Of a stretch of 19,562 nucleotides of DNA, positions 4,748 through 19,301 are shown in pieces. A model generated the notes under the pieces. That model searched no databases. It saw nothing but the letters and a program-made list of their open reading frames with translations, and was not told where the DNA came from. The stretch comes from Candidatus Thorarchaeota archaeon (lineage in GTDB: Archaea > Asgardarchaeota > Thorarchaeia > Thorarchaeales > Thorarchaeaceae). How positions within the stretch are numbered: position 1 is the first letter of the stretch; the number at the start of each line of letters is the position of its first letter. The position numbers and the translations under genes were made by a program. The DNA lies in NCBI GenBank assembly GCA_020348985.1, contig CP070761.1:1631565-1651126 (forward strand), written 5' to 3'.

Positions 4748-5308
4748 CTACAAACCAGGTCTCAAGAAGCTTTCTACGGCTTGCTTGGCCCTCATTCGTG
4801 AATTGCTACCGGCATTGATGAATATCTCAGCAACACCCTCACCTGTCTTGGCACTTGTCAAGAAGAAGTCAAGAGAAAGCAGATCTGCCATTTGTTTGCC
4901 TTCCTCTGGCGTGATTGCTATTTTGTCTTCCAGGTCAATCTTGTTTCCAACCAGAGACCCCCCAAAAGGGTTCTCTGAAGGCATGCAGATGCCTTCCGTC
5001 AGATTTGTGTACCATTCAGCTACTTCTCTCAAGGAGCCCCGATTGGTGACGTCATAGACTAGAATGAGATGGTGAGCTCCTTTGTAGAATCGCCCACCCA
5101 AGCCACGAAAGGACTGCTGGCCACCCAAGTCAACAAGGCTAAGAACAACCTTGCCGTCCGGAAGTTCAAGTTGTGCTACGTTCATCATGACGCCAATCGT
5201 GGCGGAGTAGGTAGTTTCGAACTCTCCACCAAGATAGGCCTTAATCAACGAAGTCTTGCCTGAATTAGGAGGACCTGCAATCAGTGTCTTGAAGACCTCG
5301 GCAGACAT
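4748..5308 (-). CDS. Rab/Ras-like small GTPase
   Basis: G1 GPPNSGKTS, G2 YSATIG, G3 DLGGQ, RFYKGA, G4 NKID, G5 TSAK. No C-terminal CAAX/CC. ATG 5308 preferred over GTG 5350. Confidence 0.93.
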   Translation of the reverse strand: MSAEVFKTLIAGPPNSGKTSLIKAYLGGEFETTYSATIGVMMNVAQLELPDGKVVLSLVDLGGQQSFRGLGGRFYKGAHHLILVYDVTNRGSLREVAEWYTNLTEGICMPSENPFGGSLVGNKIDLEDKIAITPEEGKQMADLLSLDFFLTSAKTGEGVAEIFINAGSNSRMRAKQAVESFLRPGL

Positions 5309-5481
5309 ATCGACCACTCGTCCAAGTTTACAGTTAGCCCCGTGTCCCACTTATGAGCGTTGTTCGGGCGTTCTCGTGCATCGGTGTGATGCAATGCTTA
5401 GCGGGTATTTGTGCATTACTCTAGCTCATTTGAGACATGCCGTAAGTGTTTTAGAGGAGTCGAGCAAGGCTTCCAAACACG

Positions 5482-13048: not shown

Positions 13049-13599
13049 TTTGGTCACATCAGAGAGCAGCGAGTCCGCTCTTTGACTTTGGCTCATTGGA
13101 CGAGTCCAACAAGGATTCAATATCTATTCGAGAGATGCGCATGTCTGCGGCCGCCTCTCAAGCAACTGTTCTCGTTTATGGCGGTTTCACGGTAACGAAC
13201 ACAAACCAAGTAGCCAAAACGGACGCGTAGTTGTACTGATAGTCATGAATCTTCTACCCCCCGCCTCAATCTACTGATTCTGCAGATTGTGCAATCTACA
13301 TGACATCGTAATCAAAAAGAGGTGAAATGCCCTCAGAATGTGCTCCTGTGCTTATCTGAGGCCATTTTCACGTACAATATGCTAGACGGTGTCTATCACC
13401 ACGAACCATGCCTACCAAGGCCACTCTGGTTCGTCATCAGGCCCACGATATCCTGACATCGTTATCAAGGGTTACTGGCAATAAGTATCTAGTAGTGCAA
13501 GTGGAAACATCGTACAGAAACGCCCTGGTGGGAAAAGGCTATCAGAAAACGGGGAGATTGGAAATTGGGACCATTCAGCCGACGTGGAGGGAAGAGCCT

Positions 13600-15204
13600 A
13601 TGTCAGTGGATTTCAGAAAAGACGTTAGGCGTCTCTGGAGGAAGTACTCGGGGATTGTGGAACAGCTTTTTGGATTGGAAGCAGAGGCGTGTCCTGATAT
13701 CATAGTCTCGGGATCCTGCAATGAAGAAGGCCAATGCATGGGGTGTCTGGAAGAGAATGGAAGAGCGTGTATACCAGAGGATGTTATCTCTGGACGGTTC
13801 CCGTTGGAGGGAGTAGTATCCAGACTCTGCCTAATGGCGGCCATATCTCGAGAGCATGTCTGCATAGAGGCCATAGAGGATATTGGATCCGAATTCGGCC
13901 GACAGAACATCGAGAAGAGTGCAAGAGCTGAATGGTTGGACCGGTGGGCCTCTGTGAAACCTAGGAGAGTGCAGAATGCAACCACGGTTCATGACCCTTC
14001 GAAGACGTATTCAAAGCTGTATGAGTTGGTTGGGCAGAAAGCGATTACGGAGCTAGTTCGGGAAATTTCGTACATGGCAAAGCACAAAGAAAGACTAGGT
14101 GTGCAAGATTATGTTGGATTCTTGAGAAGACGGTTTCAGAGATTCTCCGTCCAGCTGAGTCAGACCGAAGTTAGTATCGTGAACTGCCTTCTCAATAATG
14201 GTTCTGTGACCTACAAGAGAATTGGTGAGAACCTGGGACTTACACCTGAATGGGTTTCTCGCAGGATTTCGAACCTGCTAAATCGATCCATTCTGAGGAA
14301 ATTCAACAGAGTCCCGTTCTCAAGGATGGGAATCCGGATGTTCTATGTCCTCCTTTCTTCAGCTGGAGGCGTGGAGAGATCACTTAGATATCTTACACGA
14401 TGCCCATTTCTATATGCATACAGAAGAGTACTCTCGAGTTTGTGGGATGTTCTTGCGATTCTTGCTGTTCCTGAGAACATTGACAATCTCGAGGCGCTCA
14501 GACGTTTTGCCGACAGGGCCGAAAACGACTCGCTGAGGATTAGGATTCTCGAAATAGCTTCCTCAGGAGTCAGTTACTGCTTTGACCACTATGACACTGA
14601 GTTGGGACTGTGGAACATACCTTGGGACCTACTCCACTTCCAGCTCAAGAGAATCCACAGAGACAAGCTTTGGTCCGCCTTTCCAAGAGTAGACACACCA
14701 AGCTTGAGAGCAGGATTAATCATTGACAATCTGGACTTACGAATTCTGAACGAAGTGAAGCGTGGCATTTCTTCCGTAGGAAAGATTCGAAGCAGTCTTC
14801 AGATTGGTCAAGAGCGTGCGGCAGAGCGTCTCAAGAGATTGCGGAAGGCTGGAATCATACTTACATCTTGGGAGGTTCATAACATCGGGTTGAATGAATG
14901 CATTTTCCTTACGTGTAACGATCCTGAGCTCTCCAATGCGATTGCTGCTTGGGTCCAGCGGCTTCCTAAGAACATAGTCTCCTTTGATTCGGACGGCTGT
15001 CTTCTTATGATAAGTCAGCTACCAAAAGGTGGAGCGTTCGGACTAATCTCTGCTGTAGCGCACTTTGAGTCGAAAGCCCACGTTGAGGCTCTTGATGTGG
15101 CGATGTACGGAGCAAGAGGGTTTCCATACGACTACTGGGACACAAACAGCCAATCATGGATGTGCAATCGAAGAGAGCTCGAGGACTGGTTATCACTCCG
15201 CTGA
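13600..15204 (+). CDS. Large transcriptional regulator with two Lrp/AsnC-type wHTH modules and an N-terminal domain of unknown function
   Basis: LSQTEVSIVNCLLNNGSVTYKRIGENLGLTPEWVSRRISNL and IDNLDLRILNEVKRGISSVGKIRSSLQIGQERAAERLKRL. The ORF is open from 13408; ATG 13600 follows GGAGG and is the likelier start. Confidence 0.8.
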   Translation: MSVDFRKDVRRLWRKYSGIVEQLFGLEAEACPDIIVSGSCNEEGQCMGCLEENGRACIPEDVISGRFPLEGVVSRLCLMAAISREHVCIEAIEDIGSEFGRQNIEKSARAEWLDRWASVKPRRVQNATTVHDPSKTYSKLYELVGQKAITELVREISYMAKHKERLGVQDYVGFLRRRFQRFSVQLSQTEVSIVNCLLNNGSVTYKRIGENLGLTPEWVSRRISNLLNRSILRKFNRVPFSRMGIRMFYVLLSSAGGVERSLRYLTRCPFLYAYRRVLSSLWDVLAILAVPENIDNLEALRRFADRAENDSLRIRILEIASSGVSYCFDHYDTELGLWNIPWDLLHFQLKRIHRDKLWSAFPRVDTPSLRAGLIIDNLDLRILNEVKRGISSVGKIRSSLQIGQERAAERLKRLRKAGIILTSWEVHNIGLNECIFLTCNDPELSNAIAAWVQRLPKNIVSFDSDGCLLMISQLPKGGAFGLISAVAHFESKAHVEALDVAMYGARGFPYDYWDTNSQSWMCNRRELEDWLSLR

Positions 15205-15240: not shown

Positions 15241-15732
15241 CTAGCCTGGCAAGCTTGGCTTTGGACGTGGCATCTCGGTGTCTGTCCAAAGCTCGTAGTA
15301 GTTCTCGACCTTCGTGAATCCGAGCCTTCTGTACAAGCCAGAACTCATCTCGGTATTATGAAGTGTGAACTTCTTTATCCCCCTCTTGGTGAAGAATGAC
15401 ACAACCTCAATCATGAGAGCCGTAGCAATCCCCTTTCTTCTGAATTCCGGTTCTACAAAGACATTGTGAATATAGGCTATGCGCGCGCATTGGATCTTTC
15501 TTGGATTGGGAAGTCTTGAGTAGACTGACACTGCGCATCCCCCAACCACCTCACCATTCTCAGTAGCCAAGAAGCACTTGATACTGTCATCCCATTCATT
15601 TTCCATAAAGTCTTGAATCTTTGGAGTTGCTCTTCTCAGCAGCTCATCATCATACCCCATACTTCTAAACATCTCTATTCGATGATGAATTATTCGTGGG
15701 ATATCATCTTTCTGCGCCAGTCTGATTTTCAT
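15241..15732 (-). CDS. GNAT family N-acetyltransferase
   Basis: Motif A NVFVEPEFRRKGIATALM, and LYRRLGF. Confidence 0.92.
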   Translation of the reverse strand: MKIRLAQKDDIPRIIHHRIEMFRSMGYDDELLRRATPKIQDFMENEWDDSIKCFLATENGEVVGGCAVSVYSRLPNPRKIQCARIAYIHNVFVEPEFRRKGIATALMIEVVSFFTKRGIKKFTLHNTEMSSGLYRRLGFTKVENYYELWTDTEMPRPKPSLPG

Positions 15733-15756
15733 CTAATGCCCCCCTAATTGCCTTTC

Positions 15757-16593
15757 CTACGATTCAGCTGTCTTGGTAGCTTTGAATAGGGCAAAACCGG
15801 GAAAAACCTCAACTGCACTAGTCTTAGGAAAGAATTCATCGATTATCCGTGATATGAAAACACCTTCTTTTACTCCCCAATCAGGAAACAGGTTCAATGA
15901 AGTGAATCTCAAGAAAGCGTCCAGGGAAGGGGCCTGCGGTTCGTCGAAGAAAGTGAGAGGAGAGGATATAAAAAGAGCCCCACTATCCTTCAACAACCTA
16001 CGGATTTCTGCAATCACCAGTGGCAGAATCCTGTCTTCGGGGACCCCGCTAAGCCAGACAAGTGAGTATCTGCTAGACCTAGCCCTCATTTCAGTTAGGT
16101 CGCCCTTGACCCTACGATGGGGGATTTCGTGGAGTGAGTTTGAAGTTTCCTCTCCGAGAACATGCAGTTTTGTGCCGTTACATCTTCTGACCAGGGTCTT
16201 TAGAAGCTCCAAATCAAAATCGTTCAATCTCTGCGGAGTAGCGAAGAGGACTCTACCAGAAAATAGGCTGATGTCTGTAGGCACTAGTTTGCATGCACAG
16301 GCGATCCTGTAGTGACAATACTTCACATAGAAGTGGGCGATTGTGTCTATTGCAGACTTCATCATCTCGCGAAGTCTCGTCTTTCCGTTGTCACCTACTC
16401 TGTAGACTCTTCGTGGCGGACCATGAGGACTAGGTTGTATCTCGCTTGCCACCAGCCCTCGTGACTCCATTTGATGAAGCCAACGGTAGAGAGTCGTGAT
16501 CATGATGTTTTGGTCATCTTGTTCCAATGTCTTGAGTAGATCATAACCGTGGCTTGGACTACTGTCTAAGGTAAGCAGGATTCTATCTTTCAA
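15757..16593 (-). CDS. PadR-family wHTH fused to a degenerate class I methyltransferase-like domain
   Basis: N-term ILLTLDSSPSHGYDL...LYRWLHQMESRGLV...GPPRRVYRVGDNGK (PadR). C-term VKGDLTEM...RYSLVW...IAEIRRLLKDSGALFI (MTase-like). Confidence 0.82.
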   Translation of the reverse strand: MKDRILLTLDSSPSHGYDLLKTLEQDDQNIMITTLYRWLHQMESRGLVASEIQPSPHGPPRRVYRVGDNGKTRLREMMKSAIDTIAHFYVKYCHYRIACACKLVPTDISLFSGRVLFATPQRLNDFDLELLKTLVRRCNGTKLHVLGEETSNSLHEIPHRRVKGDLTEMRARSSRYSLVWLSGVPEDRILPLVIAEIRRLLKDSGALFISSPLTFFDEPQAPSLDAFLRFTSLNLFPDWGVKEGVFISRIIDEFFPKTSAVEVFPGFALFKATKTAES

Positions 16594-16620
16594 TTTTCCA
16601 TTGTTCTCTTTCAGTCGAAC

Positions 16621-17223
16621 TCACACCCCTGCTGTTTCAGGAGACTTCTCTGTCACAATCATCCAGTCCTGATGCTCTTCCTCTGAGTATGTGTAATTGC
16701 GTAGATACTCTCTTAGCAGGGGCCCAATCGCGATTGTGAAGATGGAGCCCATTATCACTTGAACGGAGTTGATTGTCACAAGCTCAATCAGTGCAACTCC
16801 GAATGGCACACCTAGGACAAAAACCTCACCCAAGAAGTAGCCCGTCAGCATGGCTGCTGAGCCGAAGAGGACACCAATCACGTCCCACCAACTTGCCCTT
16901 TCTCGCAATCTTGTTCTACTACTGAAAAGGCCTACGAAGAAACCTTCGAACCCTTTTGCAAAGAATGTTATCGGCATAAACGCAGGGAAACCGAGAAGAG
17001 CATCTCCCAAAGCCGAACCAGTCCCCCCTGCAATGAAGCCTCCAATGGGTCCTAGAAGTAGACCACTTAGCATCACAAATGTGTCTCCGAGATTGAAGTA
17101 TCCTTGCGTTGAAGGAAATGGCACAACGAAGACAACTGTGGCAATGGTTGAAAGAGATGTAAAGATTGCAACCATTGCGATGAACATTGATCTGTTCGAA
17201 TTCTTGGTTTTGAAAGGCTCCAT
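16621..17223 (-). CDS. ECF transporter S-component, HmpT/PdxU-like
   Basis: AMVAIFTSL (AxxxA-like helix 1), VPFPSTQGYFNLGD, LLGPIGGFIAGGTGSALGD, TFFAKGFEG; about 6 TM. ATG 17223 (TTG 17247 is an alternative). No EcfA/T genes in the window. Substrate is inferred only. Confidence 0.88.
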   Translation of the reverse strand: MEPFKTKNSNRSMFIAMVAIFTSLSTIATVVFVVPFPSTQGYFNLGDTFVMLSGLLLGPIGGFIAGGTGSALGDALLGFPAFMPITFFAKGFEGFFVGLFSSRTRLRERASWWDVIGVLFGSAAMLTGYFLGEVFVLGVPFGVALIELVTINSVQVIMGSIFTIAIGPLLREYLRNYTYSEEEHQDWMIVTEKSPETAGV

Positions 17224-17255
17224 AGTTGATCCACGTGATTCTAGCAAGACATAGG

Positions 17256-17286
17256 AATATATAATAGTGGCCTTATATATAAGCCA
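17256..17286. promoter_or_regulatory. Overlapping divergent TATA promoters with palindrome
   Basis: ATATATAA at 17257-17264 and perfect palindrome CTTATATATAAG at 17272-17283, in a 71-bp divergent gap. Confidence 0.6.
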
Positions 17287-17294
17287 AAACTGTA

Positions 17295-18791
17295 ATGTCT
17301 CATACTCAGGGATTGAAATGCACTCAATGCGGAAAAGAGTTCACCTACCAGTTTCCCATGAATATATGTCCCGAATGTGGAAGTGTCCTCTTTATTCATT
17401 ATGACATTGAGGATGTCAAGAATCATCTCACAGCCCGGAAATTGAGGAACCGAAGACCCGGTGTTTGGAAGTATTCAGAGCTATTACCTGACATAGATGC
17501 GAGTAAAAGAGTCTCATTAGGAGAAGGAGGCACGTATCTTCACAAGTGTGATCGTCTTGCAGCAGAGATTGGGTTGGAGGAGCTCTATCTCAAGGATGAA
17601 ACGACAAATCCGACTGGATCATTTCTTGACCGAGGAATGTCTTTGGAGATTTCCGCTGCAAGACAGTGGGATATAAAGTCAGTTCACAACAGAGGGTTAG
17701 ATGCCGGGAATATGTCGGCATCACTTGTTGCTTATGCCGCCCGTGGAGGTCTTGGGTGCAAGACATTCATCGTGAAGATGGGTGATATCCATTTGGGTAA
17801 ACTACATCAAATCTTGGCTCATGCTTCTGAGATTGAGATTGTTGGTAGCAAAGATGAAGCTCTCAGAAGATCTGAGGAAGAGAGCAGATGGAGTCACTGT
17901 GTCAGGTGCACAAATCCTCATTTTCTTGAAGGTAAGAAGACAACGGTGTTGGAGATCTACGAACAGCTGAATTGGGACCGTCCCGACTGGATTGTTGCAC
18001 CAATGGGAACAGGCGGGAATGTTTCCGCTATTTGGAAAGGGATTCGTGAGCTAGAATCAGTTGGACTCATCGACACAACACGCCCTCACATTGTAGGTGC
18101 CCAAGCCGCATGCTGTGCTCCCATAGTGAATGCCTATGAAGAGATATCGGGAAAAGTCAATCCTTCCGGCGCCAAAACAACTGTAGCACTTCCGATAGCG
18201 ATATCGAATCCGCTTTGTGAAAAGACCGCTCTCGAGGTGATTCTGCAGTCAAACGGCTTGGGCATGAGAGTCACTGATAAAGAAATCCTGAACGCAGTCA
18301 TGCTTTTGTCCAGACTTGAGGGCGTCTACGCCGAGCCAGCATCTGCAACAACTATAGCAGTTCTTCAAAAGCTAGTAAAATCTGGTAGAATTCAAAGGGA
18401 CGAGAGAGTCGTCTGCATAATCACTGGTACGGGGCTGAAGTATCCTGAATTTGCAAAGACTCTGGTTGAGAGGAATGACGAGCTCGAGCAGCTATTGACG
18501 GAGATGGAGCGCAGGAAAGTTACTACCCAACTAGGTCAAACGAAAATCCAAATCTTACGAATTCTAGCTGAAGGAGAAACGTACGGGTATGAGATATGGA
18601 AGAAACTTGGAGAAGTCGCTGGAATAAGCGTGAAGGTGCCCGGTGTATATCAACATCTATCAGACTTGGTAAATAACGGACTAGTCATCAAAACAAAGAC
18701 AATTCAGGTCCTCAAGAGGATGAGAACTTACTACGGAATCTCAGAAAAGGGGAGATATACAGTCACCCAGCTAGACAAACTCGATCGATGA
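17295..18791 (+). CDS. Threonine-synthase-like (fold-type II PLP) protein lacking the catalytic Lys, with N-terminal Zn ribbon and C-terminal PadR-type wHTH; probable regulator
   Basis: CTQC/CPEC; VSLGEGGT; LKDETTNPTGSFLDRG; EGKKT; PMGTGGN; EPASA; ITGTGLK. C-term TKIQILRILAEGETYGYEIWKKL...VYQHLSDLVNNGLV...RTYYGISEKGR. Confidence 0.88.
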   Translation: MSHTQGLKCTQCGKEFTYQFPMNICPECGSVLFIHYDIEDVKNHLTARKLRNRRPGVWKYSELLPDIDASKRVSLGEGGTYLHKCDRLAAEIGLEELYLKDETTNPTGSFLDRGMSLEISAARQWDIKSVHNRGLDAGNMSASLVAYAARGGLGCKTFIVKMGDIHLGKLHQILAHASEIEIVGSKDEALRRSEEESRWSHCVRCTNPHFLEGKKTTVLEIYEQLNWDRPDWIVAPMGTGGNVSAIWKGIRELESVGLIDTTRPHIVGAQAACCAPIVNAYEEISGKVNPSGAKTTVALPIAISNPLCEKTALEVILQSNGLGMRVTDKEILNAVMLLSRLEGVYAEPASATTIAVLQKLVKSGRIQRDERVVCIITGTGLKYPEFAKTLVERNDELEQLLTEMERRKVTTQLGQTKIQILRILAEGETYGYEIWKKLGEVAGISVKVPGVYQHLSDLVNNGLVIKTKTIQVLKRMRTYYGISEKGRYTVTQLDKLDR

Positions 18792-18800
18792 ACCCAGAAC

Positions 18801-19301
18801 TCACATCTGCTCGATACTGCCACCTGAAGCAATCGTGGTTCGACCTCCGTTTCTGATAGGAAGATGCATTAGAGATTCCGATGTAGTGAACCCGCAGGAT
18901 GTGTATAGCCGTCGACTCACCTCGGACGCATGAAGAATAGCTACTCCTACTCTTTCTGACATACAGACGCCGACCACGTGGTTTAGAAGTTCTCTTCCAA
19001 CTCCATTTCTTCTGTCTTTGGGCTCAACGTACATATTGAATATGTAGGCCATCAGGCCTGTACGTTGCCTTGTGAGGGGAGGAATCCTGAAAACACTAAG
19101 ACCACACCCTCCTATGACATCTCCGTCTCTTTCAGCAAGGAAGTAACGAAAGTCGTCTGTCCAATTCATTGTGAGATAACGCTTGGTCAATGCATCGGTT
19201 TCATCGATGACCTCCTCCGAAGCACCCGAATCACGGAACAAGCCAAGGCGATGATGAAGGATCCACTCAGCATCTGTTCTTGCTGCATCCCGGATATTCA
19301 T
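18801..19301 (-). CDS. GNAT family N-acetyltransferase (paralogue of 15241-15732)
   Basis: NMYVEPKDRRNGVGRELL, LYTSCGF. Start set at MNIRDA (19301) by alignment with the paralogue MKIRLA and an AT-rich TATA-like element at about 19318-19333. Confidence 0.9.
   Translation of the reverse strand: MNIRDAARTDAEWILHHRLGLFRDSGASEEVIDETDALTKRYLTMNWTDDFRYFLAERDGDVIGGCGLSVFRIPPLTRQRTGLMAYIFNMYVEPKDRRNGVGRELLNHVVGVCMSERVGVAILHASEVSRRLYTSCGFTTSESLMHLPIRNGGRTTIASGGSIEQM

Follow-up and report, generated by a model that had tools for sequence, protein, structure and literature searches.

Why should a gene that is annotated as a threonine synthase, but has lost the Schiff-base lysine of that enzyme and ends in a DNA-binding domain, lie head-to-head with a gene for a putative vitamin transporter? 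This question is raised by a locus in a stretch of 19,562 nucleotides (hereafter the window; G000:C1:1631565-1651126) from the closed 3.16 Mb genome of a Candidatus Thorarchaeota archaeon. An earlier interpretation made from the letters alone (the sequence-only reading) had grouped five genes of the window into one cofactor-sensing module for vitamin B6, namely the threonine synthase (ThrC)-like regulator, the S-component of an energy-coupling factor (ECF) transporter, a second PadR protein with a methyltransferase-like domain (PadR/MTase-fold protein) and two GNAT acetyltransferases (GNAT1 and GNAT2). Our comparative analysis retains the B6 interpretation and narrows the unit: the whole is best explained as a one-component vitamin B6 switch, the regulator, together with its target, the divergent operon headed by the S-component, a reading to which we assign a probability of about 0.6.

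A threonine synthase fold without its lysine

The regulator consists of a Cys4 zinc ribbon (residues 9-28), a central threonine synthase domain belonging to the fold-type II proteins dependent on pyridoxal 5'-phosphate (PLP), which also matches TIGR00260 with 190 bits, and a C-terminal PadR winged helix (residues ~415-497, positions 18537-18785) that exceeds the PF03551 cut-off of 27 bits (Table 1). In the AlphaFold2 (AF2) model of the regulator, which has a predicted local distance difference test (pLDDT) value of 85.7, the PadR part is composed of three helices, a wing and a C-terminal helix. The nearest relatives (P0002-P0005) are 81-64% identical, and a single-protein metagenome scan found only relatives that are ~40% identical.

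The position of the Schiff-base lysine is occupied in the regulator by Leu111 (codon 17625-17627), the motif being NPTGSF-L-DRG instead of SFKDR, and Ile or Leu was found at this position in all of the 120 best homologues. Alignment to the solved threonine synthases of Aquifex (2ZSJ) and Bacillus (6CGQ) indicated that the regulator shares with these enzymes not only the fold and the zinc-ribbon N-terminus, but also the SxGN loop, the Gly-rich PLP-phosphate loop, EPAS and TGxGLK, whereas it differs from them by Leu or Ile in place of the Schiff-base lysine, by Phe in place of the Arg of NPYR(I/L)EG and by the additional PadR domain of ~85 residues. Because the lysine was lost and the remaining ThrC motifs were kept, the regulator is a pseudoenzyme, conserved as such across its family, whose cofactor pocket appears to be intact and to which a PadR winged helix has been appended; the sequence-only reading, which had described a dead ThrC fused to PadR, was right on this point. 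Homologues of the regulator are annotated as threonine synthase by every source consulted, and this label is a systematic annotation error that inflates predicted threonine biosynthesis.

The divergent S-component/regulator pair is conserved across Archaea

A neighbourhood scan with one genome per species yielded 80 loci from Thor-, Hermod-, Loki-, Borr-, Sif-, Njord- and Baldrarchaeia, Bathyarchaeia, Nitrososphaerota, Methanomethylicia and Thermoprotei. In 65 of these loci, representing at least five archaeal phylum-level groups, an S-component homologue lies directly upstream of the regulator gene on the opposite strand. The association proposed for this locus, in which a sensor of PLP-enzyme fold accompanies a gene probably for B6 uptake, is thus deeply conserved across Asgard archaea, Bathyarchaeia, Nitrososphaerota and others, and because the second PadR gene and GNAT1/GNAT2 do not share this conservation, the conserved core is the divergent S-component/regulator pair. 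A literature search on B6 regulation in Archaea, on transcription factors resembling ThrC and on pseudoenzymes joined to PadR returned nothing relevant, and no paper on the pair.

In Thorarchaeota the pair is usually found in a block composed of Rbr, a ~430-aa protein of no known family, the S-component, the regulator and SOR. The genome of the window carries this block in its ancestral order, but without the regulator, at 2.67 Mb (L010, G000:C1:2675051-2678509), where a second HmpT-like S-component (L010:1447-2097, minus strand) is 52% identical to that of the window and only the left box of the operator described below is left (~L010:2128-2142). The regulator gene looks to have been deleted from this locus, and since the Thorarchaeota-type block sits there without it, the window contains the pair as a second copy, placed in a new context. 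In 33 Thorarchaeota loci the gene that comes directly after the S-component encodes a soluble protein of 426-440 aa (for example L010:58-1338 and L045:2772-4067, both on the minus strand); searches for Pfam, PDB and informative Atlas matches to it gave none. Given that the genome yielded no clear PdxK, this protein could be an unrecognised B6 salvage enzyme.

The S-component and its probable link to vitamin B6

The S-component lies far above the PF07155 cut-off of 26.7 bits, and its only sequence match in the PDB is chain S of 4HZU, HmpT of Lactobacillus brevis. A profile of the S-component family (A2, 31 members) was compared with HmpT, RibU and CbrT, and of these HmpT/PdxU2 (4HZU_S) was by far the best solved match, with an E-value of 1.2e-28 and 103 bits, against 0.02 and 17.8 bits for RibU (3P5N) and 2.7 for CbrT (6FNP), in agreement with the HmpT/PdxU type assigned to this protein before. 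Both S-components known to serve B6, PdxU and HmpT/PdxU2, belong to PF07155/COG4720 (PMC9997740), and HmpT co-purifies with pyridoxamine (PMC4860826). Like HmpT, the S-component has an acidic residue at the position of Glu41, keeps Asp68 and is solitary, presumably depending on a shared ECF module; unlike HmpT, non-Asgard archaeal members of the family carry an insertion of ~60 residues. Such a module had been expected elsewhere in the genome, and the candidate is an EcfA-EcfA'-EcfT operon (ABC-ABC-CbiQ/EcfT) at ~C1:1045566-1047938; a second EcfT-like gene is found at 2.625 Mb. In the Njordarchaeum locus, two ABC ATPase genes follow the S-component (L079:7170-7913) on the same strand, and a complete ECF transporter may there be under the operator.

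Three lines of evidence connect the pair to B6. The first is gene order: in five loci without an S-component (L058, L059, L060, L066 and L067) the regulator gene is divergent from pdxS-pdxT, and in L086 and genome G031 pdxS comes directly after it, giving seven loci or genomes with such adjacency. The second is the phyletic distribution of PdxS and the S-component family, which were found in 6 and 34, respectively, of 41 Asgard genomes and are nearly mutually exclusive: five genomes have only PdxS, 33 only the S-component, one has both and two, both incomplete, have neither. Fisher's exact test gave 1.6e-4 on genomes, a value overstated by the non-independence of related genomes, and 0.04 on families. 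The third is the gene content of the closed genome itself, in which neither PdxS nor PdxT was found, consistent with its own Thorarchaeota family of 25 genomes (PdxS in 0/25, S-component in 24/25). Because of this adjacency, complementarity and absence, the B6 uptake and sensor interpretation of the core is well supported on comparative grounds. The whole Thorarchaeota family looks B6-auxotrophic, and such a phyletic mark on an Asgard family has consequences for attempts at cultivation and for how syntrophy is modelled.

A bipartite element in the divergent promoter region

Comparison of the spacers between regulator and S-component identified a common bipartite element of 30 nt, in which ATATATAAG is followed by five to six bases and the palindrome GCCTATATATAGGC. 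The element begins at a fixed spacing of ~39 nt before the regulator start codon in ~60 of the 80 loci, across phyla, while the remainder of the regulator/S-component spacers is unalignable. In the window it comprises a TATA-like box (17257-17264), six bases and the palindrome CCTTATATATAAGC (17271-17284), the element ending 9 nt before the regulator ATG and starting 33 nt from the S-component ATG. PadR-family transcription factors bind palindromic operators near their own gene, and the conserved palindrome 9 nt upstream of the regulator is the predicted site for its PadR domain.

A position weight matrix (PWM) was built from 47 distinct instances of the element and scanned against the 3.16 Mb genome, where the site of the window scored 29.1 and the next best site 7.9; the palindrome pattern likewise has a single match within the window. 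In this whole-genome scan no second operator site was detected upstream of other genes, so that the regulon envisaged by the sequence-only reading does not extend beyond the locus in this organism. As judged from its sequence, the element overlaps the TATA boxes of both divergent genes, and binding to it would block either the TATA-binding protein and transcription factor B (TBP/TFB) or the polymerase. Such occlusion is the usual mode of repression in Archaea.

In other genomes, always ones that carry the regulator, the element recurs before unrelated genes (GNAT, radical SAM, pdxS and EamA). GNAT genes accompany the operator or the S-component in at least 13 loci. Most belong to a RimI-like subfamily that is 45-56% identical among Thor-, Hermod- and Bathyarchaeia and is situated between operator and S-component in L011, L018, L020, L021, L024, L025, L047 and L050; in L038 the divergent genes begin with the RimI-like GNAT (L038:7188-7898) and continue with an EamA transporter, in L022 the GNAT stands behind a second full operator copy (score 40), in L054 it lies downstream of the S-component and in L035 there is a fragment. 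GNATs of a second type were found in L043, where the operator occurs a second time, and in L035 after the S-component. An EamA/DMT transporter lies next to the regulator or within operator-linked gene runs in L037, L038 (L038:6283-7188), L043 and L054.

In several lineages a radical SAM protein of ~320 aa is encoded beside the regulator or where the operator occurs a second time (L024, L025, L043:9675-10652 and L054). It is possible that this protein and the EamA/DMT transporter are further members of the regulon.

A proposed vitamin B6 switch

We postulate that the regulator, which with Leu in place of Lys can no longer form an internal aldimine but keeps the rest of the PLP pocket, would bind PLP or another B6 vitamer non-covalently as its signal. 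Its PadR domain would bind the palindrome that overlaps the TATA boxes and thereby control both its own gene and the divergent operon, most likely by repression when B6 is plentiful, through occlusion of TBP/TFB or RNA polymerase. The S-component, together with the EcfA-EcfA'-EcfT module at ~1.046 Mb, would import a B6 vitamer, an import that the organism should need because it has no PLP synthase. GNAT1 would be co-regulated within the operon and probably plays the same B6-related role in acetylation as the RimI-like GNATs found under the operator and in the PdxR regulons of bacteria, the PadR/MTase-fold gene would be a lineage-specific passenger of the operon, and GNAT2 a nearby paralogue with its own promoter.

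Several observations weigh against this proposal. The comparisons show the domain make-up, the family-wide loss of the lysine, the conserved gene order, the conserved and unique motif, the alternative position beside pdxST and the phyletic complementarity; the ligand, the sign of regulation, the vitamer that is imported and what the GNATs do are what we infer from them. The residues of HmpT named for contact with pyridoxamine are Glu41, Gln43 and His84 (PMC4860826), and they are only partly kept: Glu41 corresponds to Asp or Glu, and throughout the archaeal family His84 is replaced by Lys and Gln87 (by our own count) by Glu, while residue 43 of 4HZU chain S is Gly by our count and the published numbering of Gln43 could not be mapped. 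Because these contacts are only partly kept, the vitamer could differ from pyridoxamine. The genome also has no clear PdxK, the best PF08543 score being 24.9 bits, below the cut-off. Regulation is moreover dispensable, since the S-component is kept without the regulator in both genomes of the same genus and in about nine genomes of the family, and since the genome itself holds a second, unregulated copy. The motif consists of TATA-like sequence and could be partly promoter rather than operator. Finally, GNAT1 and GNAT2 match the regulon-type GNATs with E-values of only 1e-4 to 1e-6 and are not their orthologues.

Alternative explanations

In the broader module proposed by the sequence-only reading, the PadR/MTase-fold protein provides a second input and both GNATs are integral members. 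We consider this unlikely, even though the S-component, the PadR/MTase-fold gene and GNAT1 are tightly packed behind one operator-bearing promoter and GNAT genes recur in the regulon elsewhere. The first difficulty concerns the PadR/MTase-fold protein. Its AF2 model (pLDDT 85.2) has as best PDB matches in Foldseek the COMT-type O-methyltransferases (E-value 1e-10, TM score 0.45-0.52), which likewise begin with a winged helix and continue into a methyltransferase domain of Rossmann type (for example 3P9C and 5F8E), and the methyltransferase-like description given to it before therefore holds at the level of the fold. Unlike these enzymes, to which it is 10-14% identical, it has a winged helix that is a true PadR match, well above the cut-off, and A-x-P-R-L in the place of the Gly-rich S-adenosylmethionine (SAM) loop. 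This replacement of the GxGxG after strand 1 was observed in 11/11 aligned members (consensus G-R-I-L-x-x-A-x-P-R-L), and because of it the C-terminal domain is probably non-catalytic and not an active methyltransferase.

The family is also rare, with 12 cluster representatives below 1e-30 among 1.84 billion, and the gene is patchy in the genome's own family; genomes of the same genus either lack it or encode a protein that is only 24-35% identical. Homologues were found 4-8 kb from the pair in three of the 80 loci (L015, L044 and L068), and several Thorarchaeota, among them genomes G011, G024, G010 and G018, have them at 3-7 kb, which would favour a functional connection, but this loose linkage fits an inherited Thorarchaeota gene order. 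No S-component, GNAT1-like gene or regulator was found within 1.5 kb of homologues elsewhere. Only in this genome, and at no other locus examined, is the PadR/MTase-fold gene inside the S-component operon, which speaks against a second regulatory input. A paralogue of the protein (34% identical) is encoded at G000:C1:1211877-1212695, and ~8 kb from it there is a GNAT1-like fragment (C1:1203269-1203544; 43% identical over 93 residues), so that PadR/MTase-fold and GNAT1-like genes are near each other twice in the genome.

The GNATs of the window are a similar case, in that GNAT genes as a class are recurrent in the regulon, while GNAT1 and GNAT2, which are paralogues of each other (34% identical), belong neither to the RimI-like subfamily nor to the second regulon type. 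No orthologue of either was found beside the pair in the 80 loci at an E-value of 1e-5, and the own genome contains no closer copy of the regulon-type GNAT. GNAT1, which has a G-rich ribosome-binding stretch ahead of its ATG, is tied to the unit by its position in the operon alone. GNAT2 is preceded by an A/T-rich promoter-like stretch of its own, without an operator match, and is tied only by its paralogy with GNAT1 and its proximity. The five-gene module is supported in part, for the core pair and for the GNATs as a class.

The B6 switch also has to be weighed against a sensor of amino acid metabolites, in which the lysine-less ThrC domain would sense O-phosphohomoserine, threonine, an amino acid-PLP adduct or a similar compound and the S-component would carry a micronutrient other than B6. 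The fold and most of the substrate-side motifs are indeed those of ThrC, and the specificity of an S-component cannot be read from its sequence alone, the Lys at the position of His84 being a case in point. We nevertheless regard this possibility as improbable, because seven loci or genomes have the regulator beside pdxS-pdxT, the distributions of PdxS and the S-component complement each other, and the content of the regulon parallels that of the bacterial PLP regulons. In addition, the Arg of NPYR(I/L)EG in solved threonine synthases, presumably the residue that binds the phosphate of the substrate, is replaced by a near-invariant Phe in the regulator family.

Slightly less probable still is that the element is simply a strong bidirectional archaeal promoter, made of two TATA boxes with their flanks, and that the genes are located together without direct control. 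Its TATA-like composition and its position, which suits the promoter geometry of both genes, would be accounted for in this way. A mere promoter would, however, hardly be unique in a genome of this size, which must contain well over a thousand promoters, nor would it be expected before the unrelated genes listed above always in regulator-carrying genomes. The palindrome furthermore varies in step with the lineage of the regulator, CCTATATATAGG in one and CCCATATATGG in another, the latter being the palindrome of a variant of the same bipartite element at the pdxS-linked loci, and the second S-component locus, from which the regulator was lost, retains the left box alone.

That the regulator is still a threonine synthase or another PLP enzyme that uses a different lysine, with PadR serving feedback on its own gene, can be practically dismissed in spite of its uniform annotation and of a PRK08197 (NCBIfam) score of 305.1, barely above the cut-off of 303, as the Schiff-base lysine is absent from all 120 homologues, the other invariant lysines of the family (K100, K215 and K382) also occur in true threonine synthases, and two further ThrC paralogues in the genome keep the SFKDR lysine.

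Comparison with known vitamin regulators

The bacterial PdxR, PdxW and PdxQ regulons described by Suvorova and Rodionov comprise pdxST, pdxU, DMT transporters and RimI/RimL acetyltransferases, and regulators of the MocR type were reported to be absent from Archaea (PMC5320631). The likeness to the archaeal system is considerable. MocR-type regulators (PdxR, PdxW, PdxQ and GabR) also reuse a PLP-enzyme fold as sensor and fuse it to a winged-helix DNA-binding domain, their genes are often divergent from the target, and their regulons share with the archaeal one pdxST, a PdxU-type S-component, DMT/EamA transporters and RimI/RimL-type acetyltransferases. The construction is different: MocR-type proteins have an N-terminal GntR domain and a fold-type I aminotransferase domain in which the PLP lysine is kept, whereas the regulator has a fold-type II ThrC domain without the lysine, a C-terminal PadR domain and an operator over archaeal TATA boxes. 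The regulator may thus work like PdxR, yet it stands outside the MocR/PdxR family.

Archaea possess other regulators, such as ThiR for thiamine and RbkR for riboflavin, in which a biosynthetic-enzyme domain is joined to a winged helix and which control uptake or synthesis genes of the same vitamin. They differ from the regulator in enzyme fold, in DNA-binding family and in vitamin, and no B6 counterpart of them was described in the literature searched. As a tentative proposal, to which we give less than even odds, fusions of a fold-type II PLP pseudoenzyme with PadR could be the general B6 sensor of Archaea (Asgard archaea, Bathyarchaeia, Nitrososphaerota, Methanomethylicia and Thermoprotei), having arisen independently of MocR/PdxR and assembled the same regulon. 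If this is true, B6 homeostasis includes, in Bacteria as in Archaea, a step of acetylation that has gone unrecognised, and the S-component family is the missing B6 importer of archaea that lack PdxS. The occurrence of RimI-like acetyltransferases in bacterial and archaeal B6 regulons points to such an additional enzyme step. B6 transporters have been called a major open question (PMC9997740), and the locus supplies, for Archaea, a candidate regulator, its predicted operator and a candidate B6 importer.

Locus layout and other genes of the window

The features of the locus are listed in Table 1. The five open reading frames and the four intergenic gaps agree exactly with those of the sequence-only reading. 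The S-component and the regulator are head-to-head, with 71 bp between their start codons (ATG at 17223 and 17295, respectively), the S-component gene is followed on the minus strand by the PadR/MTase-fold gene after 27 bp and by GNAT1 after a further 24 bp, and the convergent genes of GNAT2 and the regulator have their stop codons 9 bp apart. The open frame of GNAT2 reaches 19475.

Table 1. Coordinates of the regulator, the element and the neighbouring genes in the window
Feature	Position	Strand	Evidence
Regulator, 498 aa	17295..18791	+	PF00291 192 bits and PF03551 44.1 bits
Bipartite operator/promoter element	17256..17285	.	Conserved motif, PWM
ECF S-component, 200 aa, HmpT/PdxU2-like, first gene of the divergent operon	16621..17223	-	PF07155 110.6 bits
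PadR winged helix and class I methyltransferase-fold domain, 278 aa, second gene of the operon	15757..16593	-	PF03551 55.9 bits
GNAT1 acetyltransferase, 163 aa, third gene of the operon	15241..15732	-	PF00583 60.7 bits
GNAT2 acetyltransferase, 166 aa from the ATG at 19301	18801..19301	-	PF00583 49 bits

Among the other genes of the window there is one (13408-15204, plus strand) that converges on GNAT1 and encodes a protein of 598 aa with two winged-helix regions, of AsnC type at residues ~250-300 and ArsR-like at ~440-486, the remaining body being of no known type. Further away, a Ras-family small GTPase typical of Asgard archaea (4748-5350, minus strand; PF00071, 120 bits) is encoded beside an M48 peptidase and an MFS transporter.

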